NCBI GenBank assembly: GCA_017540505.1
Contig: JAFYAW010000018.1
Span: 21,286 to 85,285, forward strand
Source: Bacteroidales bacterium
Lineage (GTDB): Bacteria; Bacteroidota; Bacteroidia; Bacteroidales; WCHB1-69
Length of the DNA stretch: 64,000 nt
Reading direction: 5' to 3'
The notes under the pieces are model-generated. The model was given only the letters and a program-made list of their open reading frames with translations, did not search any database and had not been told where the DNA came from. The position numbers and the translations under genes are program-made. Of the stretch, positions 7,117-64,000 are shown piece after piece (position 1 is the stretch's first letter; each line of letters opens with the position of its first letter).

Positions 7117-10100
7117 TTATTCCTCTAAAATGCAGCGTATCGAGTAGCCGAAATTATCCGCATCCTCCTTTTCTTCCAGTTTGTGGCAGGGGAATGTCAT
7201 GGAGAAGAAGAGCGTGTTTTCGGAGTTTTCGTCGCCGGAAGTGGACCAGAAGCGTGTTTCGCCGAGCAGGTTCTCGAAGCGTTTGCGGGTGCCGTTGTAG
7301 AAGCCGGCGGGCAGTGCCGAGAACTGCGTGCTGTTGTTCCCGCCGCTGTCGTTGATCCAATAGAGGGGCGAGCGCAGGGCGTAGGCCCCGTACAGGCTCA
7401 GTGCTTCATACTGCTCCCGCTCGGGCAGATACCAGCCGTCGGGGCAGATGCCCGGATGGTGGCCTCCGGCGGTGAGGCTGTCTTTCTTCAGGCTGTCCAT
7501 GGCATCGCGCCACGTGTAGAGGCACCCGAAGATGCGGATGTTCTCCAGCGTGTCGGGATACATGTCGGAGGCATATCCCATCACGCGGGGGATTTTCCGC
7601 CCGTCGGCGTAATGCTGCGATTCCAGATTGCGCTGTGTCCAGCAATAATGGCCGATGCGCACTGCCGGATAGATGTTGCCGTCGTAATCCACGGCGTCGG
7701 GGCAGGGCAGGTTGACCCATGGGTCCTGGATGCGCACCAGCACGCTGTCGTGCAGGATGCCGCACCCGCTGCCGATAATGTCAATATGGTACATTCCTTC
7801 ATCAGTCAATGACAATAGTAGATTCACGTCCCGCTGTTGGCTTTCAAATCCGTTGGGCCCTGTCCAGTGGTAGGTGAACTCCTCCATCGCCAGTCCGTGC
7901 AGGTGGCAGGTGTCGCCCACCTCATACCCGACGGTCGCCTCCCCATCCTCCAGCCAGCATTTCCGGATGGATTCCATATCGCTGACACGGAAATTGGTTA
8001 GGAAGTGTGCGTTGCAGGCGTCTTCCATCTGTACGGACATGTTCTGCATGAAACGCAGCGGCACATCCTCGAAATAGCCCGTGCTGTTTTGGGCAATCAG
8101 GGGTCCTTGGCCGTCCGGCTGTGCAAAGAGCCGGTAGATGTAGGGTTCGGAGCCGCCCCGCGCTTTGGAGTGCACGAAGCCTGTGGTATCGGCACTGTTG
8201 CACACATACGAATACAAGTACTTGAAATCCAGCGTGGCCCCGTCCCAATGGATGATGGTGTCCACATGAAAGCAGGGGTTCGTTGGAAGATAGGCATCGC
8301 CGCCTTGCGGCAGGGTGTACATGCTGAGCCGGTAGTCGCCGGCCACGCCCACGAGCAGGGGCTCCCCCTTGACGACGGCGTTGGCGGAATGGATGATGGA
8401 ATCTCCCAAATAGACTTGGAAATAGGTCTGCAGATTCTGGCCTCCCTTGGCGAACTGGCCCGCTATGGGCGTGATTTCCAATCGGGTGCACTGCTGTCGG
8501 AACTGGTAGGCAGGTGGCTCTGCTATCTCCGGCGACTCGCGCAAGAAGTCCTGCACGAGGGTGTCTTTGCTCCGATTGCAGGCCGAGGTGACCACCCACG
8601 TGTACCGCCCGTTGGGCAAAGCGGTGTCACTGAGCAGCAGTAATGGCCGGTTGGACCCGTTATGTTTGTAGGGGATGATTTCAATGTTGGCATGGTTGTC
8701 GGTATTCTGCCGATGGGTGGTTAGGTGGCCGATAGAATCCGTATGTGTGGTGAAGTTGTAGAAGTTGTTCCGCGGACTGCCAACCAACTCTACGGTAACA
8801 TCCCGATACGAGGCTTTGCGTGTGCCGTCCTCGGCACGGGAAAGCCCGTAGGCACCATTGATCTGAAACACGCCGACACCATACCGTCCGTCGGGACAGT
8901 ATTCTTTGAAGTCTTGGGTGGTGGTCGCCCAATCATAATTCCGGTAGTATGAGGCGATACCTCCTCCCGGTTCGGGTTTATATACAATCGTAGTGGCGTG
9001 AACCGGACATCCGTGTGCATCCACTATTTCCACAATCAAGGTGTCGCCAGCATTCACACCAGAGGTGACGTTGGACGATAAGATCCAGGAATAGTCGAGT
9101 GTGGACTCCATGTCGCTGAAAAGCACGGTGTCAGTGGTGGCGTTTGTAACCTTCCATGTTACGGGCAGCGTGACGTAGCTGTGGTACTGCATCCCGACGG
9201 TGCTGTTTGGGATGCCACCCTCCTCAGTCATTAGTGTGTATGCCTTGTCGCTGGGGTGGTTCAGCGAGTCGGCAGGCATGTAGATGTTGACTGGGATAAT
9301 ACGTTGCGAAAACAGTTTCAATCCTGTGATTACATTTTCGTAGCGGGCGGTCTGGTATCCGCAGGTGTCGTAGTATTCTTGTGTTGCCAACACCAGCCGG
9401 TTTACGGGGAGGAGATTGTCTGTTATCTGCCCTTGGGGATAAATGGTAAAATGAAACTCTACCAGTGTGTCTTCGCAGGCTTTGGGTCGTACTTGCATCG
9501 TGATGGGTTTGAACCAGATATTGCAGTAGCAGTTGGCTTGTGACACGGTGTCGCGGATGAAAGTGCCTTGGGTGGATGACGGCGGCAGATTGTACCAGGA
9601 GGTGGTGTCCGGCCCTGTGAGGACGGCGGGATTGAGGAAACGGTATTCGTAAATGGCCTCCCCGGAATAATGGTAGTAGTCGTCGTTGCTTTCGGAGGAA
9701 TATGCCTCTATCAGCATGTTCTTGATAGTGATGACATTATGCGAATAGATGTCGCCGCTGCTGTTTCGGAGCAGGAATTTCTGATTGCGAAGGTTATAAC
9801 GGACCTCTGGTACTGGGGCGGTCAACGCGGGCGTATGATATCCGCACGCGTCGTGGCACAGGAAACGGTATTCGCCCACGGGCAGACTATCTATAGTATA
9901 ATAGTCGCGGAAATCGTAGCGCAGGGGGTCGTCGCCGGTGTGCTGCGGTGATGTGAAGGTGACGCTTCGCCAGAAGAGGGTGTCGCTGCCGCTTATACGG
10001 CTGATTTCCACCGTGTAAGGTAGGGTGCCGCGCTCGATTTTAAGCTGGATCTTGCCGGTGGGCTTGCATCGCAGGGATGGTACGGTGCCGTAAGGGTGCT

Positions 10101-10563
10101 CTCTGGTGAACAGCGGGTATATCACGCCGCTGACAGGGTGCTCGTAGTCGCTCTCCACAAGGACATCCTCCACGGAGTCGGATACCAGGGTGTAGGCGTC
10201 GCCCTGCGACAGGCCGGTCTGGCATAGGGCCGTCACCCGCACTTTGTAATGTCCGGGCCAGAGATGTGTGACGGAGGGGAGTGTGCTCTTCAGGATGGAG
10301 TCCTCGCCTGCGAGCGGGATGTACGCGTAGCGGATCTGTGACAGGCGTGAGCCCGTCGTGTCGTGCAATGTGCAGTGGATTTCACCATCGGCTTGGCATT
10401 TGGCTGGGATAGTGCTGATTTCCAGCCGTATAGGACAGTTTTGCCCCAATAGGCTGCCGATGCAAAATAAAGAATTAATTGTTAAAAATGCACGAAAAAA
10501 AACGGAGAGCCTTTTGACTCTCCGTTTCGTGCTCTTGCCGTTTTGTGATTTTGGTGGGACCAT
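7117..10563 (-). CDS. Large secreted multi-repeat protein with C-terminal FISUMP (Fibrobacter succinogenes major paralogous) domain
   Basis: Signal-like N-terminus. Repeated xxDxxGC modules (DACGYH, DAHGCPV, GSGCGIL). The C-terminal ~200 aa carry YDGNIYPAVRIGHYCWTQRNL...CPDGWYLP...FSALPAGFY...FWSTS...GYSIRC, typical of TIGR02145. Confidence 0.75.
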   Translation of the reverse strand: MVPPKSQNGKSTKRRVKRLSVFFRAFLTINSLFCIGSLLGQNCPIRLEISTIPAKCQADGEIHCTLHDTTGSRLSQIRYAYIPLAGEDSILKSTLPSVTHLWPGHYKVRVTALCQTGLSQGDAYTLVSDSVEDVLVESDYEHPVSGVIYPLFTREHPYGTVPSLRCKPTGKIQLKIERGTLPYTVEISRISGSDTLFWRSVTFTSPQHTGDDPLRYDFRDYYTIDSLPVGEYRFLCHDACGYHTPALTAPVPEVRYNLRNQKFLLRNSSGDIYSHNVITIKNMLIEAYSSESNDDYYHYSGEAIYEYRFLNPAVLTGPDTTSWYNLPPSSTQGTFIRDTVSQANCYCNIWFKPITMQVRPKACEDTLVEFHFTIYPQGQITDNLLPVNRLVLATQEYYDTCGYQTARYENVITGLKLFSQRIIPVNIYMPADSLNHPSDKAYTLMTEEGGIPNSTVGMQYHSYVTLPVTWKVTNATTDTVLFSDMESTLDYSWILSSNVTSGVNAGDTLIVEIVDAHGCPVHATTIVYKPEPGGGIASYYRNYDWATTTQDFKEYCPDGRYGVGVFQINGAYGLSRAEDGTRKASYRDVTVELVGSPRNNFYNFTTHTDSIGHLTTHRQNTDNHANIEIIPYKHNGSNRPLLLLSDTALPNGRYTWVVTSACNRSKDTLVQDFLRESPEIAEPPAYQFRQQCTRLEITPIAGQFAKGGQNLQTYFQVYLGDSIIHSANAVVKGEPLLVGVAGDYRLSMYTLPQGGDAYLPTNPCFHVDTIIHWDGATLDFKYLYSYVCNSADTTGFVHSKARGGSEPYIYRLFAQPDGQGPLIAQNSTGYFEDVPLRFMQNMSVQMEDACNAHFLTNFRVSDMESIRKCWLEDGEATVGYEVGDTCHLHGLAMEEFTYHWTGPNGFESQQRDVNLLLSLTDEGMYHIDIIGSGCGILHDSVLVRIQDPWVNLPCPDAVDYDGNIYPAVRIGHYCWTQRNLESQHYADGRKIPRVMGYASDMYPDTLENIRIFGCLYTWRDAMDSLKKDSLTAGGHHPGICPDGWYLPEREQYEALSLYGAYALRSPLYWINDSGGNNSTQFSALPAGFYNGTRKRFENLLGETRFWSTSGDENSENTLFFSMTFPCHKLEEKEDADNFGYSIRCILEE

Positions 10564-10607: not shown

Positions 10608-10704
10608 TAAAAATAATTTAAAATACCATTTTATTTGATGAAAAATTTATATAAAATAGTCAAATTTAACAATTAATAGTTAAAAATTCGATTTTTTGTT
10701 GGAA

Positions 10705-10900
10705 GATTAGAGATTGGAGTTTAGAGTTGAGGGAGAAACGTTAAAGTGTTATGGGTCAACAGCTATATCAGGCCATTAAAAAACTAAGAAATTAAGAAGT
10801 TAAGAAACCAAAAACCAATGCTAACAGCCAAAAGCTAATGGCATGTCGTAATCGAAAACCGCAAACCGCAAATCGTAAATCGCAGACTCCAAGCCTACAT
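10705..10900 (-). repeat. Heptanucleotide-phased drifting tandem array (about 28 units), inverted relative to the other arrays
   Basis: Reads in one 7-nt phase: GATTAGA GATTGGA GTTTAGA GTTGAGG ... AACTAAG AAATTAA GAAGTTA AGAAACC AAAAACC AATGCTA ACAGCCA AAAGCTA ... TCGAAAA CCGCAAA CCGCAAA TCGTAAA TCGCAGA. The reverse complement gives the TCTAATC/TCTAAAC/CCTCAAC units seen at 14256 and 53277. Confidence 0.8.
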
Positions 10901-10915
10901 TCTGCCGAAAAGTTG

Positions 10916-14172: not shown

Positions 14173-14178
14173 TTGTCC

Positions 14179-14290
14179 ATTGGGATTTGGGTATTGTGGA
14201 ATTAGGCTTTGGCCATTAGCCGTTAGCTATTGGCTTTTAGCTTTTAACTTTTAACTCTAAACTCTAATCTCTCAACTCTAAACTATTAAA
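14179..14290 (+). repeat. Heptanucleotide-phased drifting tandem array (16 units) filling the glnS-downstream spacer
   Basis: ATTGGGA TTTGGGT ATTGTGG AATTAGG CTTTGGC CATTAGC CGTTAGC TATTGGC TTTTAGC TTTTAAC TTTTAAC TCTAAAC TCTAATC TCTCAAC TCTAAAC TATTAAA. Confidence 0.85.
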
Positions 14291-14295
14291 CAGAC

Positions 14296-14715
14296 ATGCA
14301 CTGCCTCACCGATTACGACACCAAGGTGCTGCTCGCCTTCAATCTGAGCTTGCAGGGCGACCGGAAATTCAGTGATTTCCTGATGCAGAACGGGTATCCG
14401 GAGTTGGAGGCGTTGTCGTCGTCCATCCATTCGAACATTGCGGCCCAGCAGTGGCTGTTGGACAATGGGTATCCGGAGTTCGCCGTGTTGAGCAATGCCA
14501 TCGACGACGAGCCGGAGGCTATTGACTGGTTGGAGAAGTACCATTGCGACTTCCTATCCAGGTTTGCGGCGGCGTGCCGGAAGGACCCGGCGGCCATGAA
14601 GTGGTTCGCGGCCAACGACTTGAAACTCTTCGTTATCATCATCAGCAATATCCAGAACATCCTGATGTACCAGTCGTGGGATGCCTCCGACATCCACAAG
14701 TTCCGGCGGAGTTGA
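14296..14715 (+). CDS. Hypothetical protein with internal NGYPE(L/F) repeats
   Basis: 139-aa ORF with a repeated ...(F/W)L(M/L)(Q/D)NGYPE(L/F)... motif. No signal peptide. Family not recognised. Confidence 0.5.
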   Translation: MHCLTDYDTKVLLAFNLSLQGDRKFSDFLMQNGYPELEALSSSIHSNIAAQQWLLDNGYPEFAVLSNAIDDEPEAIDWLEKYHCDFLSRFAAACRKDPAAMKWFAANDLKLFVIIISNIQNILMYQSWDASDIHKFRRS

Positions 14716-17579: not shown

Positions 17580-17604
17580 TTCTCGATTGGGGATTAATGT
17601 TTTG

Positions 17605-17612
17605 CAAATATA
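17605..17612 (-). promoter_or_regulatory. -7 box TATATTTG (minus strand) for ccsBA
   Basis: Reverse complement of CAAATATA, 26 nt upstream of the ATG at 17579. Confidence 0.5.
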
Positions 17613-17649
17613 AAAAAAATGTTGAGACGCAAGACTTTGCGTCTCAACT
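17612..17649 (-). terminator. Intrinsic terminator after the di-haem gene
   Basis: 10-bp GC-rich stem GTTGAGACGC/GCGTCTCAAC followed by a T-run on the minus strand. Confidence 0.8.
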
Positions 17650-17650
17650 G

Positions 17651-21934: not shown

Positions 21935-22143
21935 CAACGTTAAATTAATATACTATTTGTTGTCATGAAAACTTTTGACAGGAAGATACCTTTTCCATAT
22001 AAGTCAGAAGCCCTTTTGAGGGCGTGCCAGAACAAGTCTCCCGGTGTTTGGGATTCCTCCTGTCGAAACAAAGGATCCCTGTGCGGGAGGAATGGAATGG
22101 GACAATACAATACAAATTTATTCATCCAAAAAAACAAAACGTT

Positions 22144-23724
22144 ATGAAATTTTATAAATTAATATTATTAGTAGTTCTTCTATTTGTTGCCAGCTCTTGT
22201 AAAAAGGAAGATGTGTTTGGCTATAAATTCTTAAATTACGAATTATGTCTCGATAATCCTCTTTTTGAAAGTATGCTTGATGAAATTAACCAGTATGACA
22301 CGTATGTGAATAATGATGGTATCATGGTGTTTGACAATAGAGAGGCATTGAAAAATACGATCGAAATACTTGAAACATATTGTGACTCTATTATTGCTTC
22401 CGACACTTCCTTGTCGTATGGTGATATTCTTAATGCATTTGGTTGTGCTTACCATTTTCAATCTTTATATACAAAGATTGAAAATCAGATTGAATATTTG
22501 GAACAGAATGAACTGCTTTCAGAACAAAATGACCCAGACATTCACTTTATAGGTAATATTTTCCTTCGAGCAATACTAACTCCAGATTGTGAGATAATTG
22601 TTGGAGATACATGGTATATACTTCAGGACGGTTTTACTTTAGGAATTATGAACCACGATGCAGAGGCAAGAAGTGATTTGTTGGAGCTTATTCAAAACAA
22701 TGGTTCAAAGGAAAATTTTTTCTTTTACTGTAATACACATAAAAACGCATTCATAACTTCATATGGAGAAGCAGATGTGAAACCTGAATTTGTTTGCCAA
22801 GTGTCATCTTCCAATCTGTTAAATTATTCTTTCATTAACATGACATCGTGTGAGGAATACACAGGTGTGACCTATTTGTGGACTTTTGGTGACGGTTATA
22901 CATCTACTTTGTCCAATCCATCACATACTTATTCTATTGCAGGAACTTATACTGTACGTCTGACAGCAAGTTATAATGGGGTTAGTAAAATGTGTGAGAA
23001 AGTCCTAAATGTGGGAGGAGAAAGCGCAAATTTTACCTATAGTAAAGATCAAGATGGTGTTTTTTATTTCTCTGCACAGATAAGTGATACCAATATTGTC
23101 GTTGTAGGATATGAATGGGATTTTGGTGATGGAACAGTTGTTCAGACAAATGAAGGGAATTGTACACATGTATTTAGCGATGAGGAGGAAACATACCACG
23201 TTAGTCTTTCGATTATTAAACCGTTGGAAAATACAATATTGCATGAAAAGAACCTTTCGGATTTGTGGCATCCATACTGTCGGCCTTTAGCCTGTTGTTA
23301 TTCTGGGACATCAGCATATCCACATAGACATCTTGGTGATAATTATTATGCTAAGACTGCAATTTCAGTATATAATTCTTATATTCTTCATAATATAATG
23401 ACCAGAACGATTTATCTTAAAAAAAGGAACAATGGGACTTATAGAAGAATAAAAGCCGAAAAAATAGGAACAAAAATGCAAGGTGCAATATACGTACCTT
23501 GGAATAATAGTGACAATGGTAGTGATTGTGGTATAGAAGAATATATTAGTTTGCCCAAAATAAAATACAATCAAAGGGAAGTGGTTAAATCATTGGTCCT
23601 TTATTATGAAACATATTTTAAGGTTGCATATTTGAGTTTAGCTGCTTCGTCTTGTATTAATGAAGGTGATTTTCATTTGGGTGTGATTGTCCATAACCAT
23701 GAAAATCAATCTGTTAACCCTTAA
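22144..23724 (+). CDS. Lipoprotein with two PKD-like domains
   Basis: Start chosen at MKFYKLILLVVLLFVASSC (lipobox). PKD signatures WTFGDGYTSTLSNPSHTYSIAGTYTVRL and WDFGDGTVVQTNEGNCTHVFS...YHVSL. The gene is AT-rich. Confidence 0.7.
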   Translation: MKFYKLILLVVLLFVASSCKKEDVFGYKFLNYELCLDNPLFESMLDEINQYDTYVNNDGIMVFDNREALKNTIEILETYCDSIIASDTSLSYGDILNAFGCAYHFQSLYTKIENQIEYLEQNELLSEQNDPDIHFIGNIFLRAILTPDCEIIVGDTWYILQDGFTLGIMNHDAEARSDLLELIQNNGSKENFFFYCNTHKNAFITSYGEADVKPEFVCQVSSSNLLNYSFINMTSCEEYTGVTYLWTFGDGYTSTLSNPSHTYSIAGTYTVRLTASYNGVSKMCEKVLNVGGESANFTYSKDQDGVFYFSAQISDTNIVVVGYEWDFGDGTVVQTNEGNCTHVFSDEEETYHVSLSIIKPLENTILHEKNLSDLWHPYCRPLACCYSGTSAYPHRHLGDNYYAKTAISVYNSYILHNIMTRTIYLKKRNNGTYRRIKAEKIGTKMQGAIYVPWNNSDNGSDCGIEEYISLPKIKYNQREVVKSLVLYYETYFKVAYLSLAASSCINEGDFHLGVIVHNHENQSVNP

Positions 23725-23736
23725 ACCGATGTTGTT

Positions 23737-24285
23737 ATGAAAAAATCAGTCTTTATTTTTATGTTATTGATTATCTGTTTGTTGTCGTTTTCACAAACAG
23801 ATAATGTAGAATCAACAAAAAAAATACAATATTATCATTCGATAGATTTAGGGTCAGGTTTTGAAAAATGGAAACCAGGAGTATCAACTTGGGGAGTGTC
23901 CATTCGGGAAACACATGGGATGCTGATTAAACAGCACGTGGTGGTGGGTTTGAATTTGGAATTTTTGTATGCCAATATTTATCGCAATGATGGGGAAGGT
24001 TGTGATGTGCTTGCATTTTCGAGTGGTTTGGATTTGCGGTATTTTATTCTTAAAAAATATAAATGGACACCTTTTTTAATGTTCAAATGGAATGTGGGAT
24101 TAACGATAGTGGGCAAGACTCGTAATCGTCCGATGGAGTATGCGGACGTATATCCGTTATTTGACAATATATCATTTTTTGTGGGTTGTAATTATTCATT
24201 TAAAGAGAAAAAGAGTGTTTATATGGCTTTAGGGTGCGATATGATATATCCAGGTCCGGCTTTCCGTATCGGGGTGCGGTTTTAA
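23737..24285 (+). CDS. Small outer-membrane beta-barrel protein
   Basis: Signal peptide; alternating strands; C-terminal ...FRIGVRF. Lies 13 nt after the PKD gene. Confidence 0.6.
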   Translation: MKKSVFIFMLLIICLLSFSQTDNVESTKKIQYYHSIDLGSGFEKWKPGVSTWGVSIRETHGMLIKQHVVVGLNLEFLYANIYRNDGEGCDVLAFSSGLDLRYFILKKYKWTPFLMFKWNVGLTIVGKTRNRPMEYADVYPLFDNISFFVGCNYSFKEKKSVYMALGCDMIYPGPAFRIGVRF

Positions 24286-24312
24286 GATATCCCGATGGAA
24301 CATATAAACGTT

Positions 24313-24344
24313 AAGGCTGACCTGTTATGGGTCAGCCTTTTTTT
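24313..24344 (+). terminator. Intrinsic terminator
   Basis: 10-bp stem AAGGCTGACC/GGTCAGCCTT followed by T7. Confidence 0.8.
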
Positions 24345-24394
24345 CTATATCCGGCGAATACTTAACGACTACACCGGACAAATATACAGAGATT

Positions 24395-24592
24395 ATGTAC
24401 AAGACACCGAACAACTTCAAGCTCGCATTTTTTTATGACACAAAAGACAAAAATCCGTCATGGAAGTTGATAATGCAAATAAAGGATTACACATACAGGT
24501 CTCTCGTTGAGATTGACAAGGATGACATATCAGTGCTTGTTCAAGATTTTGAAAGTGCATACAATAGAATAAAATCAGCCATTGGGGAATAG
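24395..24592 (+). CDS. Small hypothetical protein (65 aa)
   Basis: AT-rich ORF. Its last codons lie in the 5' arm of the 24572-24609 hairpin. No homology recognised. Confidence 0.3.
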   Translation: MYKTPNNFKLAFFYDTKDKNPSWKLIMQIKDYTYRSLVEIDKDDISVLVQDFESAYNRIKSAIGE

Positions 24593-24609
24593 TCCTCAAT
24601 GGCTGATTT
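24572..24609. terminator. 13-bp palindromic hairpin, candidate bidirectional terminator
   Basis: AAATCAGCCATTG / CAATGGCTGATTT with a 12-nt loop. T-rich tails are present on both strands. Confidence 0.6.
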
Positions 24610-24853
24610 GTTTGTTTAACACAAGCGCTCTCGATACTCCTTTTACATTGAAGGTGTACACGTTGCGATTGACATCAATATGGACGCAGTCTTTTCGCTC
24701 TATCCTATTCATTAAGGACAGAACCTCTGTAAGGTCAACTTGTTGGTAGCTGTCAAGCGTCCTCGTGTTGAGCGGCATGACCTTGAAGCCAACAGGCAGG
24801 TCTATGATTAGCATTGGTCGGTCTTTCACGTAATTATTGCCTTCTTCGGTCAC
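24596..24853 (-). CDS. Small hypothetical protein (85 aa)
   Basis: AT-rich ORF convergent with 24395..24592. Its last codons lie in the 3' arm of the same hairpin. Confidence 0.35.
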   Translation of the reverse strand: MTEEGNNYVKDRPMLIIDLPVGFKVMPLNTRTLDSYQQVDLTEVLSLMNRIERKDCVHIDVNRNVYTFNVKGVSRALVLNKQISH

Positions 24854-24918
24854 AAACTACGGACTTCCTCCCTTGCCGACAACAGCGTCACCGCCAGAGT
24901 GGTGGCTCGTTCCTTCCG

Positions 24919-25253
24919 GTTTTAAAACAATCGTATTTATGCACCCTAAAAACTCGAAACGTGCAACCCCATACGGGGTTGTGGGTTCGGCTGGGAATGC
25001 CCTCGGCTACAGATAGGGAACCCCTAGCGGGGTTCAGCGGAATTCGGAAACAAAACAAGATTCCGGCATCAACCGATACACCGCAGACACCCGCATTGGG
25101 CTTAAATGCAATACTGTGCCGGAGGAGGCGGTGGTGAGGTAAAGTGAGGTGAGGTATGACGAGGTAAGGTAAGACGACTGTCTGTAGCAAACGGATGCCA
25201 CACGTGGTTTTCAAATCTCCGTAGGAGATTCATATTCAACGGCTAATGGACGG
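24919..25253 (+). repeat. Copy A of a ~335-bp palindrome-rich repeat element (3' arm partly degenerate)
   Basis: The 123-nt core 24953-25075 differs at only 2 positions from 26220-26342. Hairpins at 24964-24981, 25018-25035 and 25215-25229. CTACAGATAGG box at 25007-25017. Confidence 0.85.
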
Positions 25254-25289
25254 GTCTCCCGTTTAAAACAATTGTATTTTTTGCACCCT

Positions 25290-25351
25290 AAAAACATTGT
25301 AGGAGCATTCTCACAGGAGATCCTGCCTCCTTTCAAATGCTCCTACAATGT
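25290..25351 (-). terminator. Intrinsic terminator downstream of hicB
   Basis: 15-bp stem ACATTGTAGGAGCAT/ATGCTCCTACAATGT (25294-25308 / 25337-25351) followed by T5 on the minus strand. Confidence 0.65.
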
Positions 25352-25388
25352 GCGTCCGAAAACGACACGGCAAAAATACAAAAAACAA

Positions 25389-25793
25389 CTATAAGAGTTG
25401 TACCGCGGCCAGTTCTCTTCCAATCTTGTGAATCGCGGTCTGAATCTTTGACACTTGCTTTTCCGACACATACTGGCCGTGCTTGTATTGGCGCATCAAA
25501 GAGGGGTTGATGCCGGCATATTTTGCAAATTGTGTCATATTCAGTATTTTGTAATAGCTCAAGAAAGAAGGCATATCATATTTATATACGAATGTCGTGT
25601 TTTTCAAATCGTCGGGATCGGGTTTTCCCGTTTCCTCAAACACTTCTATAAATTCCCTAACTGAATTTTCAAAATCGGCTTTAGCCTCGGCGACAGTGCT
25701 GCCGTTTCCAAACATAACGGATTTTGTGTCAGGAGAGAACACACCGAATGTTCCGTCTTTGCCAATTTCTATTAATGCGACTTTCTTTTTCAT
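25389..25793 (-). CDS. hicB: HicB-family antitoxin with C-terminal HTH
   Basis: N-terminus (KVALIEIGKDGTFGVFSPD...GSTVAEAKADFENSVREFIE) is HicB-like. C-terminal XRE-like HTH (MTQFAKYAGINPSLMRQYKHG). An alternative start lies at 25829. Confidence 0.75.
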   Translation of the reverse strand: MKKKVALIEIGKDGTFGVFSPDTKSVMFGNGSTVAEAKADFENSVREFIEVFEETGKPDPDDLKNTTFVYKYDMPSFLSYYKILNMTQFAKYAGINPSLMRQYKHGQYVSEKQVSKIQTAIHKIGRELAAVQLL

Positions 25794-25818
25794 AATTCTA
25801 TGCTTTTGTTGATTTCTA

Positions 25819-26001
25819 TTAAAAACCAATCAATTTCTTCAACTTGCAATACAATCCGTACTTTATTTCCTGCGAACCATGACGTTCAATTTTCAAAAGT
25901 TCATTCTTTTCTGCGTGGGCATATATGTCATGATTAGCACCATTTCGCAAAAGATACCATCCTTTAGATTCGGCTATCCGTCTGAGTTCGCTCCATTTCA
26001 T
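25819..26001 (-). CDS. hicA: HicA-family mRNA interferase toxin
   Basis: MKWSELRRIAESKGWYLLRNGANHDIY...ERHGSQEI fits the HicA/YcfA pattern. The internal start is supported by the -7 box at 26026-26033, which lies inside the longer ORF. Confidence 0.75.
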   Translation of the reverse strand: MKWSELRRIAESKGWYLLRNGANHDIYAHAEKNELLKIERHGSQEIKYGLYCKLKKLIGF

Positions 26002-26025
26002 ACTCCACTGCTTTTGACCATGCTG

Positions 26026-26033
26026 CAAACATA
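26026..26033 (-). promoter_or_regulatory. -7 box TATGTTTG (minus strand) for hicAB
   Basis: Reverse complement of CAAACATA, 25 nt upstream of the hicA ATG at 26001. Confidence 0.45.
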
Positions 26034-26187
26034 TAACTTTTTTGCAATATACCAATACTCTTTAAAAAAATTATTTCTCCCTATCCATCAATTATTTACA
26101 TACTTTCTATAAATATAATTGCTGAAACTGTGCTGCAATATCAAAAGTTTTTTCCAAGACTATTGTATTTATAGAGTTTGCCATTTA

Positions 26188-26530
26188 GTTTTAAAACAAT
26201 CGCATTTACACAATAAAAACTCGAAACGTGCAACCCCATACGGGGTTGTGGGTCCGGCTGGGAATGCCCTCGGCTACAGATAGGGAACCCCTAACGGGGT
26301 TCAGCGGAATTCGGAAACAAAACAAGATTCCGGCATCAACCGCCACGCCGCATACACCCGCATCGGACTGATATGCAATACCGCGCCAGAGGAGGCGGTG
26401 GTGAGGTAAAGTGAGGTGAGACGAGACGTGGTACAACATCCCCGTAGGGGATGCCTATCTGTAGCAAACGTATTCCACACGTGGTTTTCAAATCTCCGTA
26501 GGAGATTCATATTCAACGGTTCATGGACGG
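26188..26530 (+). repeat. Copy B of the ~340-bp palindrome-rich repeat element (most complete copy)
   Basis: Hairpins at 26231-26248, 26285-26302, 26437-26453 and 26492-26506. GCTACAGATAGG (26273-26284) is a perfect complement of CCTATCTGTAGC (26454-26465). Confidence 0.85.
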
Positions 26531-52420: not shown

Positions 52421-53134
52421 ATGGGTACAACAGGAATGATATGGGATGATGCGTCGCCGGTGACGTTGGAAAAGCCGGCGGCGGTGGAGATTGTGCATCA
52501 TGGTGTGTCCGTGGCCCTCATTGCGGATGATATGCCTCTTGGCGATTTCGCGTGGATTACGCCGAACGCGGTCCGCACGTTAGTGGAGAATCATGTCAAA
52601 GTCTATATGCAGCGCGGCTTTGCGGAACATTCGCCCTACTCGGATATGGATTATGCCGATGTGGGGGCGGAGTTCGAGGACGAGTTTGTGCGGTTGGCGG
52701 CAATGTCGCCCCTGTTAGTGAAGTTCATGCCGTTCACGGAGGAGCAGATCGGGCAGATGCGCGAGGGGCAGATCATCCTCTCCACGCAGCAGGCCGCGCA
52801 GATGAGCCTCCCGCAGGTGGAAATGCTTCTCCGCAAGAAAATCTCCGCGTTGGCCATGAATCTGATACGCGATGCGCAGGGCCTCTCCGTCACCGACAGA
52901 ATACTTTCGGAGACCATCACCCCGGTAGGGTTAGGCATCGCATTGTCCAATTTTGTGCTTCCGATGATTTTGAACATCCTGTTCAGTCCGCGCTTCCGCT
53001 TCGCCCTGCAGCGCACGCCAGCCCTGATGCAGAGCGTCTATTGCTACGACGGGCACCTGTGCAACGCGGAAATGGCCGAACTGCTCGGCCTGCCATGGAA
53101 GGACATCGTAACGCTTTGCTGGGATTTGAATTAG
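52421..53134 (+). CDS. Hypothetical protein (weak resemblance to an alanine dehydrogenase/PNT N-terminal domain)
   Basis: 237-aa ORF directly after tsaE. The N-terminal half is weakly AlaDH/PNT-N-like and the C-terminal half is hydrophobic. The call is tentative. Confidence 0.45.
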   Translation: MGTTGMIWDDASPVTLEKPAAVEIVHHGVSVALIADDMPLGDFAWITPNAVRTLVENHVKVYMQRGFAEHSPYSDMDYADVGAEFEDEFVRLAAMSPLLVKFMPFTEEQIGQMREGQIILSTQQAAQMSLPQVEMLLRKKISALAMNLIRDAQGLSVTDRILSETITPVGLGIALSNFVLPMILNILFSPRFRFALQRTPALMQSVYCYDGHLCNAEMAELLGLPWKDIVTLCWDLN

Positions 53135-53136
53135 AA

Positions 53137-53318
53137 TTGGCTGTTGGCCGTTAGCTGTTGGCTATTGGGATTTGGGATTTATGTTAATGCCTGAATAAGG
53201 TTGACCGTTGGTCACTATTCACTGATCACTATTCACTGATCACTGATCACTGGTCTTAGTTCCTTAACTCCTCTCAACTCTAATCTCTAAACTCTCAACT
53301 CTAATCTCTCACCTCTTA
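53137..53318 (+). repeat. Heptanucleotide-phased drifting tandem array (about 26 units) filling a convergent intergenic spacer
   Basis: TTGGCTG TTGGCCG TTAGCTG TTGGCTA TTGGGAT TTGGGAT TTATGTT ... GTTGACC GTTGGTC ACTATTC ACTGATC ACTATTC ACTGATC ACTGATC ACTGGTC TTAGTTC CTTAACT CCTCTCA ACTCTAA TCTCTAA ACTCTCA ACTCTAA TCTCTCA CCTCTTA, all in one phase. Confidence 0.85.
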
Positions 53319-54844
53319 ATCGGCAGATAGATGACGAATGTGCTGCCCTTGCCCTCCTCGCTCTGCACCTGGATTTTGCCTTTGTGCAAGGAGACGATTT
53401 TCTTCACATAGCCAAGTCCGAGGCCGTAGCCCTTCACGTTGTGCACGTTGCCTTTGGGCACGCGGTAGAAGTTGTCGAAAATGTTGGCGATGGCCTTCTT
53501 GGGGATGCCGATACCCTTGTCGGTGACCGAGAGCAGGAAATACTTCTCGTCCGACTGCGTGTTGATAAGGATCTCGGGTGCCCCTTGCGAGTATTTGATG
53601 CCGTTTTCCACCAAATTGACAATCACATTGGCCAAATGGGAGCGGTCGCCGAAGATCTTGTAGGTGTCGGCGTTCAGGGCCAAGGAGAGCGTCCCGTTGG
53701 TGGATGAGATCTGCAGGGCGATGTTGTCCGAAACCTTGTGGATGAGCTCGTGCATGTCCAAAAGCTCGATGTTCATCTTCACCTGTCCTTTTTTCAGTTG
53801 AGCAATCTGTAAGATGTTGTTGACCATGTTTTTGAGACGGTCGTTTTCGTCACGGATGATGGAGACATAGCTCTCTAAGATGTCGGCGTCGTTGCGCATG
53901 ACGGGGTCGGTGAGTGCCTCGCAGGCTAACGAGATGGTGGAGATCGGGGTTTTGAACTCGTGGGTCATGTTATTGACGAACTCGTTGGTGACCTCCGACA
54001 GTTTTTTCTGGCGGTACAGGGAGAACAGGGCGGTGAAGGAGATGGTGAAGCAGATGATCAGGAAGATGAGGATGAGGCCCACGATGGTGCTCATACGCTG
54101 GAGGAAGATGCCGCGTTCGGCGGGGAAGTGGAGGATGATGTAGTGCGGCGCGCTCACTTTCTCGTTGAATTTCAGACGGAAGACGTAGTCGCTCTTGAGC
54201 ATCTGCTCGGGCTGGGTGAATTCCGGCTCAACGACGAAGTCGGTGGTGAAGGCGTTGTAAAGGGCGAAGTCGAAGCGTGCGGTGATGTTCTCGGCGGCCA
54301 AGGCATTCTCGATGACCTCGTGAAGGAATTCGGCGTTCAGCAGGGCCACGGTCTGGCTGTCGAGCTGGATGAGGTTGGCATCGCGGGTGTTGTTGATCAG
54401 CAGGGTAGTAGATTTGGTGTTCTTGGGTGACCACGGATCGTTGTTGACGGGGAAGAGCTGCCGGTAGGACTCGCTGAAATACTCGGTGTCGCACTCCATA
54501 AGCCGGGAGTTGTTCTCCTTGACGAAGATGACCGCCTTGATGACGCCGATGGGCTGTTGCGTTACGGTGTCGAGCAGGAATTTGCGGGTGTGCATGGTGG
54601 AGACCACATCCGTGGTGTCGGCGGCGGTGAGCTTCCCTACGGCTTCCGCCATGGCCACTGTGTCGTTGAGGATGGTGGCGTCAATCTGGTTGACGATGGC
54701 ATCGCCGGCCGTCAGCACCTCGTTGACGAAAATGCTCCGCTGCACCTTCTCCGCTTCCGTGTAAAGCTTGAAAATGGACAGGATCAGCGGGATGGAGGTG
54801 ATGCCGACAATGAAGAACAAGGCTACGATGATACGTTTTTTCAT
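53309..54844 (-). CDS. Sensor histidine kinase
   Basis: Two TM segments; H-box (NMTHEFKTPISTI); N, G1 and G2 boxes (NLVENGIKY, DKGIGIP, GYGLGL). Confidence 0.88.
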   Translation of the reverse strand: MKKRIIVALFFIVGITSIPLILSIFKLYTEAEKVQRSIFVNEVLTAGDAIVNQIDATILNDTVAMAEAVGKLTAADTTDVVSTMHTRKFLLDTVTQQPIGVIKAVIFVKENNSRLMECDTEYFSESYRQLFPVNNDPWSPKNTKSTTLLINNTRDANLIQLDSQTVALLNAEFLHEVIENALAAENITARFDFALYNAFTTDFVVEPEFTQPEQMLKSDYVFRLKFNEKVSAPHYIILHFPAERGIFLQRMSTIVGLILIFLIICFTISFTALFSLYRQKKLSEVTNEFVNNMTHEFKTPISTISLACEALTDPVMRNDADILESYVSIIRDENDRLKNMVNNILQIAQLKKGQVKMNIELLDMHELIHKVSDNIALQISSTNGTLSLALNADTYKIFGDRSHLANVIVNLVENGIKYSQGAPEILINTQSDEKYFLLSVTDKGIGIPKKAIANIFDNFYRVPKGNVHNVKGYGLGLGYVKKIVSLHKGKIQVQSEEGKGSTFVIYLPIKR

Positions 54845-62501: not shown

Positions 62502-62540
62502 ATTGTGGCGCTGGGAAAGGTGAAATTTCCACCAATTGTC

Positions 62541-62638
62541 GTTTGGGAATTGGAATTTGCGGTTTCGGTTCCCGATTCTATGTTCTCAGTTCTTAGGTCT
62601 CCGTTCTATGTTCTTTGTTCTTCGTTCTTTATCCCCCA
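62541..62638 (+). repeat. Heptanucleotide-phased drifting tandem array (14 units)
   Basis: GTTTGGG AATTGGA ATTTGCG GTTTCGG TTCCCGA TTCTATG TTCTCAG TTCTTAG GTCTCCG TTCTATG TTCTTTG TTCTTCG TTCTTTA TCCCCCA. Confidence 0.8.
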
Positions 62639-62674
62639 AAACGCCGTAGGCGTTTCATATCTGTAGAAATAGGG
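62639..62674 (+). repeat. Solitary copy of the element's 3'-arm module (GTA-loop hairpin + CATATCTGTAG box)
   Basis: AAACGCC-GTA-GGCGTTT followed by CATATCTGTAGAAATAGGG. Compare CATCCCC-GTA-GGGGATG + CCTATCTGTAG at 26437-26464. Confidence 0.7.
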
Positions 62675-62790: not shown

Positions 62791-63324
62791 TCATTTTTCT
62801 CCAACATAAAACAAATCCTTAATGGATTCGGTAGTAACTACTCGAAATTTCAGCATCCTAGATCCAATAAAAACATTTTTTCCGTTCACTGAGAATTCAA
62901 ATGTCCTGTCTAAATAGTTACTCCTCCATAGAATATCATTGTCTCCCACCGACCTTAATCGTAAATCATACCAAGTTCCTATTTGAAGAGGGGTGCTGCA
63001 ATCAAGAGTGTCTTCAAAAAAGGTTACTATAGTGAACATGAATTGTCCGGTTTTGTCCGCGACATGTATTAAATTGAATTTCTTGAAATCTTCTTTAAAA
63101 TTCCAGGGATTTGTATCTATTGCAACTACTATATAACTACAGAGGACAGAGTCATACACGGCTTCTTCAAAAATGACTGTGTCAGGAATATAATCTCTTA
63201 TCCAGTATACTTTTTCTGTATTCAGGTAACAGGTGTCAGACGTTTGCGCGGAACAGGGCCGTACACACACAAACAGCAATGTCAAAACGAGTAACGCCAA
63301 ATATTTCAACAGAGTTTTTTTCAT
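62791..63324 (-). CDS. Hypothetical secreted protein (177 aa), AT-rich island 2
   Basis: Signal peptide MKKTLLKYLALLVLTLLFVCVRPCSAQ. 4-nt ATGA overlap with the upstream gene. No family recognised. Confidence 0.55.
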   Translation of the reverse strand: MKKTLLKYLALLVLTLLFVCVRPCSAQTSDTCYLNTEKVYWIRDYIPDTVIFEEAVYDSVLCSYIVVAIDTNPWNFKEDFKKFNLIHVADKTGQFMFTIVTFFEDTLDCSTPLQIGTWYDLRLRSVGDNDILWRSNYLDRTFEFSVNGKNVFIGSRMLKFRVVTTESIKDLFYVGEK

Positions 63325-64000
63325 CGTATTAATATCCCAGGGCTTTCATTTTGATTGTTTTTTCTGGGGAAAAATCGTATCAAACAAACATAGTTTGGCG
63401 TGTTGTAAAAAGTATAAACACCTTCCTCATTGGTAGGTATTCTTAAGATGTAAATACCGCACTCATCCATCTCAACATCCAACGGCAATAGATAACAACG
63501 ATGCCCAAACTGATACAATCTAGCCACATGTATATCTTGTGGGAACGTGTAAATCATAGTTAAAATAGAATCTTTCCCGATTTTTTCACCGCTGCATGTA
63601 GTTAAGCATTCTCCATGCAAAGAGTTTGCCGTCACCTCTTTACCTAAAAAAGTTCTACTGTCAGAATAACATCTGACACCTATTTCTATTGTGGAGTCGC
63701 CAATCTCATTCATGAACACATGCTGGCTCTGGCCTGTTTCACGACACCAATCCCAAAGCGTTAATGCAAACGATGCACGATATGCATTTCTTTGGTTTTC
63801 ATAACCTTGGATACAGGCGATTGTATGCTGATTTATTTCAGCCATTTCTTCTTGACAAAGCAACGCATCACTCACTTTGATGAAGCTGTTTGTGTCCTCA
63901 TCAAATAAAGATGGTCCTTTTATCCGGTATTTTTGAGCATCCATTCGCGACAAATCTCTTTCATTCTGGCCAAATAGAGGAAAATACCCAACCCCAAAAA
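63321..64000 (-). CDS. Hypothetical protein, possibly 5'-truncated by the window edge
   Basis: The first Met in the track is at 63953, but the frame stays open to position 64000 (..FGVGYFPLFGQNERDLSRMDAQ..). Cys-rich and AT-rich. No family recognised. Confidence 0.5.
   Translation of the reverse strand, partial: FGVGYFPLFGQNERDLSRMDAQKYRIKGPSLFDEDTNSFIKVSDALLCQEEMAEINQHTIACIQGYENQRNAYRASFALTLWDWCRETGQSQHVFMNEIGDSTIEIGVRCYSDSRTFLGKEVTANSLHGECLTTCSGEKIGKDSILTMIYTFPQDIHVARLYQFGHRCYLLPLDVEMDECGIYILRIPTNEEGVYTFYNTPNYVCLIRFFPRKNNQNESPGILIR

Follow-up and report, generated by a model that had tools for sequence, protein, structure and literature searches.

What kind of sequence fills the short spacer between two converging genes near 53 kb of the window analysed here, and why should its units be 7 nt long? 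The window is a stretch of 64,000 nt (64 kb) from contig JAFYAW010000018.1 of a Bacteroidales bacterium. The spacer (174 bp, 53135-53308), which separates the end of a gene for an AlaDh_PNT_N-domain protein from the end of a histidine kinase gene, is filled by an array of heptanucleotide units at 53137-53318. Numbers without a prefix are window positions, and L numbers are comparison contigs or sequences. The array is probably a hypervariable heptanucleotide satellite, one copy of a dispersed family of composite 7-nt arrays that occupy many of the longer spacers in an uncultured genus of ruminant-gut Bacteroidales. The window sequence matches stretches of ruminant gastrointestinal metagenome scaffolds at 100% identity.

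Periodicity was measured as self-identity at increasing lags. Across the 182 bases of 53137-53318 the identity at lag 7 is 62.9%, and at lags 14, 21 and 28 it is 56%, 49% and 45%; the remaining lags in the range 1-29 give 0.21-0.30 (about 0.24). In 10,000 mononucleotide shuffles of the same segment the top value over lags 3-15 was always at or below 0.42. Tandem Repeats Finder calls arrays of period 7, 14 or 21 at 53165-53180, 53212-53252 and 53271-53321. Period 7 is enriched over periods 6 and 8, as expected by an earlier note made from the letters of this stretch: within each of three blocks the lag-7 identity is 0.73-0.77 (Table 1), and lags 6 and 8 reach only 0.08-0.39. That note had counted about 26 heptads in one phase. 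The periodicity and the three blocks stand, but only 21 of the 26 heptads have at least five of seven bases in common with a neighbouring heptad, the others being three linker units (53179-53199) and two transition units (53256-53269), and from one unit family to the next the register is arbitrary. Adjacent units are one or two substitutions apart, which is the pattern expected from duplication followed by divergence.

The blocks differ in unit family and in higher-order structure. Block 2, of the TCACTRW family, has a 14-nt higher-order repeat (Tandem Repeats Finder, period 14, 92% matches), and block 3, with 0% G and 39% C, has a 21-nt one. Block 3 is also present in two other alleles of this spacer (L002 and L032) and at 14253-14289, and its reverse complement is found at 10707-10735. 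TTAACTC-type units like those of the transition also join the two halves of the array at 14173-14295.

Table 1. Coordinates of the array, its blocks, the flanking genes, the spacer alleles and the dispersed copies
Feature	Coordinates	Strand	Description	Lag-7 identity
Upstream gene, AlaDh_PNT_N-domain protein	52421-53134	+	Pfam PF05222, E=7.7e-16; TAG stop 53132-53134	
Block 1	53137-53178	+	Six heptads, TTGGCTG TTGGCCG TTAGCTG TTGGCTA TTGGGAT TTGGGAT; family TTRGCY/TTGGGAT, G+T rich, also at 14179-14240 and, minus strand, 10818-10850	0.77
Linker	53179-53199	+	21 nt, TTATGTTAATGCCTGAATAAG, non-repetitive	0.14
Block 2	53200-53255	+	GTTGACC GTTGGTC, then six ACTATTC/ACTGATC/ACTGGTC units	0.73
Transition	53256-53269	+	TTAGTTC CTTAACT, unlike neighbouring units	
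Block 3	53270-53318	+	CCTCTCA ACTCTAA TCTCTAA ACTCTCA ACTCTAA TCTCTCA CCTCTTA (seven NCTCTMA heptads)	0.76
Convergent histidine kinase gene	53309-54844	-	HisKA + HATPase_c, 511 aa; TGA stop 53309-53311	
Window-type allele			174 bp; one of five architectures	
L032-type allele			231 nt, all heptads; order GATTTGC, TTGGGAA, TATTRGC, TTCTCTG/GTCTTAG, AACTCCT, TCTCAAC	
L002-type allele	L002 2112-2293		TTRGCY arm, non-repeat core, CTCTAAY arm	
L033- and L037-type alleles			AATTAAY left, CACTATT/CACTGAT right; L037 adds a run of CCCCTGT units	
Copy A	10690-10905	-	Between two divergent Bacteroidetes-type promoters; minus-strand reading colinear with the L032 allele of the 53-kb spacer	
Copy B	14173-14295	+	Fills the spacer from the GlnRS stop to the start of a conserved 139-aa gene	
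Copy C	53137-53318		Between converging gene ends	
Copy D	62520-62650	+	TTGGGAA, ATTTGCG, GTTCTYW units; flanked by two terminators, that of tRNA-Met and that of the next minus-strand gene	

The number of units varies among strains, which the earlier note had anticipated. We compared contigs that encode an identical 232-aa flanking protein and whose DNA is at least 99.5% identical over the 3.0-6.7 kb aligned; the spacer alleles among these near-identical strains are 160, 174 (window) and 181 bp long. In the 181-bp allele, present in two independent samples (L004 and L009), the heptamer TGTTAAT (53182-53188) of the non-repetitive linker is tandemly duplicated. In the 160-bp allele, present in three samples (L006, L010 and L012), two units, GGATTTGGGATTTA at 53168-53181, have been lost in register. 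No microhomology flanks the duplicated heptamer. A slip of 6 nt would have found 2 nt of homology, and the duplicated 14-mer has no other occurrence in the sequences compared. A new 7-nt duplication does not need microhomology to arise.

A second array, at 14173-14295, behaves in the same manner, with CTTTTAA in one, two or three copies (alleles of 116, 123 and 130 bp). Indel lengths are multiples of 7 in all four independent events (+7 and -14 in the 53-kb spacer, +7 and -7 at 14173-14295); were lengths evenly spread over residues modulo 7, the chance of this would be (1/7)^4, or about 4e-4. The rate is high, one indel per 174-bp array versus 2-4 substitutions per 6.7 kb of flank. An assembly artefact is rejected, as assemblies made independently (ENA, NCBI, JGI and Logan) contain these alleles too.

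The spacer also varies by whole blocks. Five allele architectures (Table 1) occur within a clade whose kinase genes are 90-99.9% identical, and a heptad array is found at the orthologous site in every relative examined. Lineages only about 3% diverged in the flank have entirely different blocks. The TCACTRW family fills the same spacer in relatives that are about 90-93% identical (L033 and L037), so block 2 is the part held in common with more distant relatives; blocks 1 and 3 are the parts in common with L002 and L032. The L032 contig is near-identical to the window over 20.7 kb except for one tract, between about 48.4 and 53.27 kb, that ends on the right inside block 3. Over these 4.8 kb the divergence is 2-6% (about 9-49 mismatches per 500 bp). 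A divergent tract in an otherwise near-identical contig indicates that the difference between the window and L032 alleles was imported by homologous recombination with a junction in the array, and the level of mismatch points to a lineage a few percent diverged as the likely source. The proposal of whole-unit duplication followed by point divergence therefore survives in part: all indels are multiples of 7, but growth is not purely local, since blocks are also swapped by recombination.

Period-7 arrays are found in four spacers of the window (Copies A-D), and they are related to one another. Arrays at different loci have many 11-mers in common, against about 0.01 expected by chance on our estimate; block 1 has such 11-mers in common with 14173-14295, a 16-mer (CCATTAGCCGTTAGCT) is common to locus 14213 and the L002 allele of the 53-kb spacer, and an 18-mer (TGCGATTTACGATTTGCG) to Copy A and the L032 allele. 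As a control, global alignments of non-orthologous arrays were scored against the same arrays with their heptads permuted. In 300 trials no permuted array matched the real alignment score, and the z values range from 4 to 8: 10690-10905 (minus strand) versus the L032 allele gives 8.2, 14173-14295 gives 4.0 versus the window allele and 4.9 versus the L032 allele, and 62520-62650 versus the L032 allele gives 4.4. With the L032 allele as query, nhmmer matches 10701-10885 (E=2.8e-7), 62515-62641 (1.4e-3) and 14180-14284 (1.7e-3), and finds no match in 80 distant Bacteroidota loci. Taken together, the common 11- to 18-mers, the permutation z values and the nhmmer matches suggest that a composite element specific to this lineage exists in several copies, or in relatives that convert one another, and that these are the arrays.

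Unit order gives this composite element an apparent polarity, from GATTTGC, TTGGGAT and TTRGCY units through a variable core to TTAACTC and CTCTAAY units; in Copy B the order is TTGGGAT, TTRGCY, TTTAACT, CTCTAAY. A compositional gradient shared by the arrays, together with a limited vocabulary of units, could give a similar order without any copying. This is the less likely account, since the long exact matches between loci speak against it. In the wider sample convergent, divergent and tandem spacers all hold arrays, so a tie to one spacer type was rejected; with the settings of Copies A-D (Table 1), this argues for a phenomenon at the level of DNA and not for a transcript signal. Outside the lineage, 580 kb around the GlnRS genes of 80 diverse Bacteroidota (L038-L117) hold 16 period-7 arrays, and at most seven of any other period from 4 to 12; the density of period-7 arrays in the window is roughly three times that of these 80 loci.

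Several further observations concern individual copies. Inside Copy A a period-8 block (10775-10807; ATTAAGAA, GTTAAGAA, ACTAAGAA) stands between period-7 blocks, so that registers other than 7 do occasionally occur. In Copy B the CTTTTAA units, one to three in number, give rise to TAGCTTTT/TAACTTTT boxes that precede the ATG of the 139-aa gene (14296-14715) by 45-60 nt. These boxes resemble the Bacteroidetes -7 promoter element TAnnTTTG, and unit number might thus alter the promoter of this gene. The gene itself is supported by its conservation in L038; in addition, the competing antisense open reading frame (ORF) is disrupted by a 2-nt indel. An array lies within 150 nt downstream of GlnRS in four lineages (L038, L053, L057 and L074), with differing units, for example GTCACCC in L057. 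A fifth array of the window's own neighbourhood, about 3.7 kb past the window end (L118 20365-20432), has the units TAGTGAA TAGTGAT TAGTGAA CAGTGAA, the block 2 family reverse-complemented; it overlaps the 3' end of IspD and stops at the start codon of the following gene.

If the array is a satellite of this kind, units would be gained and lost through slippage during replication or through unequal exchange, with 7 nt strongly favoured as the step, and that preference may be the unexplained bias behind the predominance of heptamers among the long simple repeats of many bacteria. Sequence would move between arrays by ectopic recombination or gene conversion, and homologous recombination would swap blocks between alleles. 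The array at the 53-kb locus would then be mainly tolerated spacer DNA between gene ends, not a sequence-specific signal, and any role in termination would stem from an unstructured C-rich, G-poor transcript and not from a hairpin.

Several points weigh against this reading. Neutral slippage alone leaves unexplained the recurrence of the same unit families, in the same order, at unlinked loci, and it does not explain why a TCACTRW block is retained in the spacer across species that are about 90% identical. Classical slippage does not predict a +7 duplication in non-repetitive DNA that lacks microhomology and where one would have expected a 6-nt slip to be favoured. The heptad arrays in this spacer in every relative seen could reflect selection. 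Finally, Copy D is free of indels in a relative at 92% identity; instability is therefore not shared by all copies, and degenerate ones can be stable.

A different account is that a polar composite element, with a TTRGCY/TTGGGAT left arm, a TTAACTC/CTCTAAY right arm and an exchangeable core, is actively copied from spacer to spacer and grows by an enzyme-defined 7-nt duplication that needs no microhomology. We consider this unlikely, although if it were true enzyme-defined heptad addition could underlie the heptamer arrays of Bacteroidota, cyanobacteria and Xanthomonas alike. Public metagenomes offer a natural series for the locus, consisting of -14, 0 and +7 alleles in the same flanks, a new 7-nt duplication, a recombination junction and colinear copies, and this makes it approachable, with long-read and metatranscriptome data that already exist, to ask why the step is 7 nt and whether arrays exchange sequence.

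The earlier note had suggested comparing orthologous C-termini for last codons rewritten by array expansion. The array begins 2 nt past the TAG stop of the upstream gene (237 aa as the longest ORF, 232 aa according to gene callers). At its other end it covers the TGA stop of the kinase and the final two codons, AGG (R) and AAG (K), in block 3, and the second 21-mer copy of block 3 (53292-53312) includes the stop codon. The placing of this kinase end within TCTCTCA/CCTCTTA units was thus correct. The likeness drawn between the last codons of the upstream gene and the TTGGGAT unit does not hold: TGGGATTTG is conserved coding sequence, encoding the C-terminus WDLN* that is conserved among relatives, and is not array because it is also found in relatives whose spacers carry quite different heptads. 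In a C-terminus alignment the kinase is 511 aa long and ends in LPIK[K/R]* in all relatives examined, the only differences being TAA to TGA and K to R (LPIKR* with TGA here, LPIKK* with TAA in L033 and L037). Given the constant lengths and ends of both proteins, array growth did not rewrite the gene ends; in the window lineage, repeat-derived sequence takes in only the kinase stop codon and its last residue. Hidden coding within the spacer was rejected, there being 3-10 stops in each of the six frames.

In L037 the AlaDh_PNT_N-like protein (9800-10501) is just 65% identical to its counterpart at window 52421-53134, the neighbouring kinase is 95% identical, and upstream synteny also differs, with a ribosomal protein operon in L037. 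From the sequences this looks like gene-specific replacement or a recombination boundary adjoining the array.

Could the array act through its transcripts? One possibility is a decayed inverted-array hairpin element, in which oppositely oriented heptad arrays on either side of a central loop or GC hairpin pair into a long imperfect stem; this stem would have served as a bidirectional terminator or as an RNA-stabilising 3' structure for the converging genes. In the L033 and L037 alleles the arms are complementary (TTAATAG left; CTATTAA or CACTATT right) and fold beyond shuffles on the kinase strand, with z values of -4.6 and -3.2. The core of the L002 allele holds CCCCGGCCTGCGGCCACCCC and, mid-spacer, a perfect hairpin (CCCCTTCTT-AA-AGAAGGGG). 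In the window itself TTRG opens both block 1, read on the plus strand, and block 3, read on the minus strand. A scan of viral contigs for a 19-mer of block 2 (TCACTATTCACTGATCACT) gave one informative match, L171 3850-4020 (IMGVR_UViG_3300029828_000035), where period-8 AGATTGCR units accompany inverted period-7 arrays (AGTGGYT; TCACTRW) around a GC hairpin; together these fold into a long stem (-70.5 kcal/mol, z=-6.0). A 15-mer, CTCAACTCTAATCTC, had 50 matches in viral contigs, about the chance level by a rough estimate of the collection size. The window allele, however, has no inverted repeat, and a consensus scan of both strands of 52900-53500 found no terminator-like site. Its RNA fold is marginal (z -1.7 to -2.0 on the plus strand, -1.1 to -2.0 on the minus strand), and the L032 allele and Copies A, B and D have no excess folding (z -1.4 to +1.0). 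The L033, L037 and L171 folds suggest that an inverted-array hairpin may be one form of such elements and not the present state of the window allele, and as an explanation of the latter we place it beside active copying, as having a small chance of being right. An intrinsic terminator was rejected, as no stem-loop with a T run was found, and so was a structured RNA family: the array has no Rfam match at the gathering score or at E values up to 1, and its fold z values are marginal.

Termination might instead depend on Rho. In such a bidirectional zone each transcript would cross its own G-rich half and then an unstructured C-rich, G-poor half that loads Rho. The composition is compatible with this, the plus-strand transcript of 53212-53318 being 33% C and 6% G with a G-free block 3, and the minus-strand transcript ends in CCCAAAT/AGCCAAC units; moreover, neither gene has a hairpin terminator, though other spacers of the window have clear ones. 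Yet Copies A and D probably lie in untranscribed DNA (between divergent promoters and between two intrinsic terminators, respectively), Copy B reaches right to a start codon, the L033 allele is A+T-only and not C-rich, and the 7-nt period is left unexplained. A Rho-type zone thus seems to us rather improbable.

Alternatively, the heptads might be bound by a protein with a 7-nt register on nucleic acid, for example a cold-shock or S1-type single-strand binder or a ring-shaped RNA binder, and serve as a post-transcriptional or chromosome-structuring signal. HutP is a ring-shaped RNA binder that reads UAG-N4 repeats, and many units here have TAG, TGG or TAA at a fixed place every 7 nt. Unit families are reused at several loci, and earlier work has put forward candidate binders of TAACTGA repeats (PMC4679880) and of Nostoc heptamers (bioRxiv 10.1101/2022.06.06.494920). 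But there are at least eight unit families in one genome, and close relatives have unrelated units at the same site, which fits poorly with a single specific binder; a heptad-reading protein is improbable.

The spread of copies could also be that of a mobile MITE-like element, or the arrays could be insertion and excision footprints of an element with a 7-bp target duplication. Unlinked copies are indeed colinear, with conserved arms and variable cores, and a 7-nt duplication did arise without microhomology. The array, however, has no terminal or other inverted repeats; Copies A-D show no target-site duplications and no defined ends; an array is present in every relative examined, with no empty site; and no transposase is linked to arrays in the window. 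Excision footprints that retain the target duplication are not typical of bacterial insertion sequence elements. An origin of this kind is very improbable, and membership of the MITE or REP type was rejected. Last, it is hardly credible that the array is a contingency (phase-variation) switch, controlling how strongly an adjacent gene is expressed through the number of units, even though unit number differs among strains, since both genes terminate at the array, no promoter or start codon is there to be modulated, and the variable sites (53168-53188) touch neither reading frame; a phase-variable contingency repeat was rejected for these reasons.

Other features of the window bear on its gene content and its variation among strains. 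A low-G+C island at 22024-26522 (GC 0.34-0.43; G+C at third codon positions (GC3) 0.27-0.34 in the two largest ORFs), which includes a PKD-domain protein, was probably acquired horizontally. It varies among strains: similarity to L014 is lost after 21912 and is back at 24350-25281. Directly after Copy D, at 62791-63953, two minus-strand ORFs form a patch of foreign composition, with GC3 about 0.37 versus 0.65-0.8 in most window genes. In strain L015 (15111-16645, window about 18519) a 25-bp deletion breaks a 519-aa DHOR/cytochrome c-like gene in two (ORFs of 270 and 223 aa), probably leaving a pseudogene. The short spacer at 17580-17650 has a hairpin terminator (GTTGAGACGCAAGACTTTGCGTCTCAAC), and L014, L016 and L017 have divergent sequence instead.

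Among known repeat systems, REP units of enterobacteria are palindromes of about 35 bp that form hairpins. The likeness of the present arrays to REP/BIME is one of analogy, as both consist of small mosaic repeats scattered through spacers, frequently where genes end (3') or in convergent spacers, and both vary among strains; the array here has no palindromy. The cyanobacterial STRR family, with the canonical units CCCCAGT, TTGGTCA and CAACAGT, is closer. As in Calothrix, Nostoc and Anabaena, the units are 7 nt long, tandem and intergenic, with many arrays and several families per genome, and the generic features of heptanucleotide (STRR-like) repeats are all present here: head-to-tail 7-nt units, dispersed non-coding arrays and variation in unit number. 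Membership of the strict cyanobacterial STRR was rejected, as the host is a Bacteroidales metagenome-assembled genome, the units differ, and TTGGTCA occurs only as a single non-tandem unit at 53208-53214; moreover, the families here are joined in a fixed order. Such arrays have been noted in bacterial intergenic regions since 1990 (Mazel et al. 1990, cited in PMC4692102). Calothrix has three heptanucleotide families (cited in PMC4692102).

Heptamer arrays of two other kinds have unit families that resemble ours. GGGAATC arrays in Xanthomonas and GGGGAYT/GGGGA(T/C)T arrays in Nostoc lie between the same gene pairs in related species and vary in length and sequence, and some are inverted pairs in convergent spacers (Rehm et al. 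2015, PMC4692102). The TTGGGAT/TTGGGAA units of our arrays resemble GGGAATC, but the Xanthomonas and Nostoc arrays are G-quadruplex runs with at least four G3 tracts, and the array here has only two adjacent ones (53167-53169 and 53174-53176), fewer than the four needed, most of its units being incapable of forming a quadruplex; a G-quadruplex array was therefore rejected. TAACTGA direct repeats occur in Beggiatoaceae, cyanobacteria and five Bacteroidetes, sometimes beside other heptamers, and in Bacteroidetes such other heptamers are found in neighbouring spacers (MacGregor 2015, PMC4679880). Block 2 (TCACTGA/TCACTAT) is one base from TAACTGA, and both are intergenic heptamer repeats in Bacteroidetes. 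The array is nevertheless not a member of the TAACTGA repeats: TAACTGA occurs once in the window, at 25658, outside every array, the nearest unit within the arrays is TCACTGA, and the 53-kb array is not upstream of a start codon. Reporter data from Nostoc hint that heptamers preceding recF and recO may have regulatory effects (bioRxiv 10.1101/2022.06.06.494920).

More generally, bacteria have an excess of heptamer repeats, close relatives differ in the length and sequence of these, and polymerase slippage has been proposed as their origin (PMC4692102, PMC4679880). Mrazek 2007, as cited in the same two papers, found heptamers to be the most abundant long simple repeats in many bacteria and proposed that this relates to how long a piece of DNA the polymerase holds. 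The arrays here likewise favour 7 nt and intergenic positions, and period 7 is also the commonest in the 580 kb from other Bacteroidota; unlike typical long simple repeats, the array is imperfect, built of several families, and related to arrays at other loci. Arrays of this sort can disrupt short-read assemblies and shift the calling of gene ends, and they can act as strain markers for ruminant Bacteroidales. The array is thus a case, from a new host lineage, of the intergenic heptanucleotide satellites, a class already known but unexplained. What is added here are the colinear composite copies, the exchange of blocks by recombination, the intact gene ends and a de novo 7-nt duplication, and the locus is a good example of its class, not a new kind of system.

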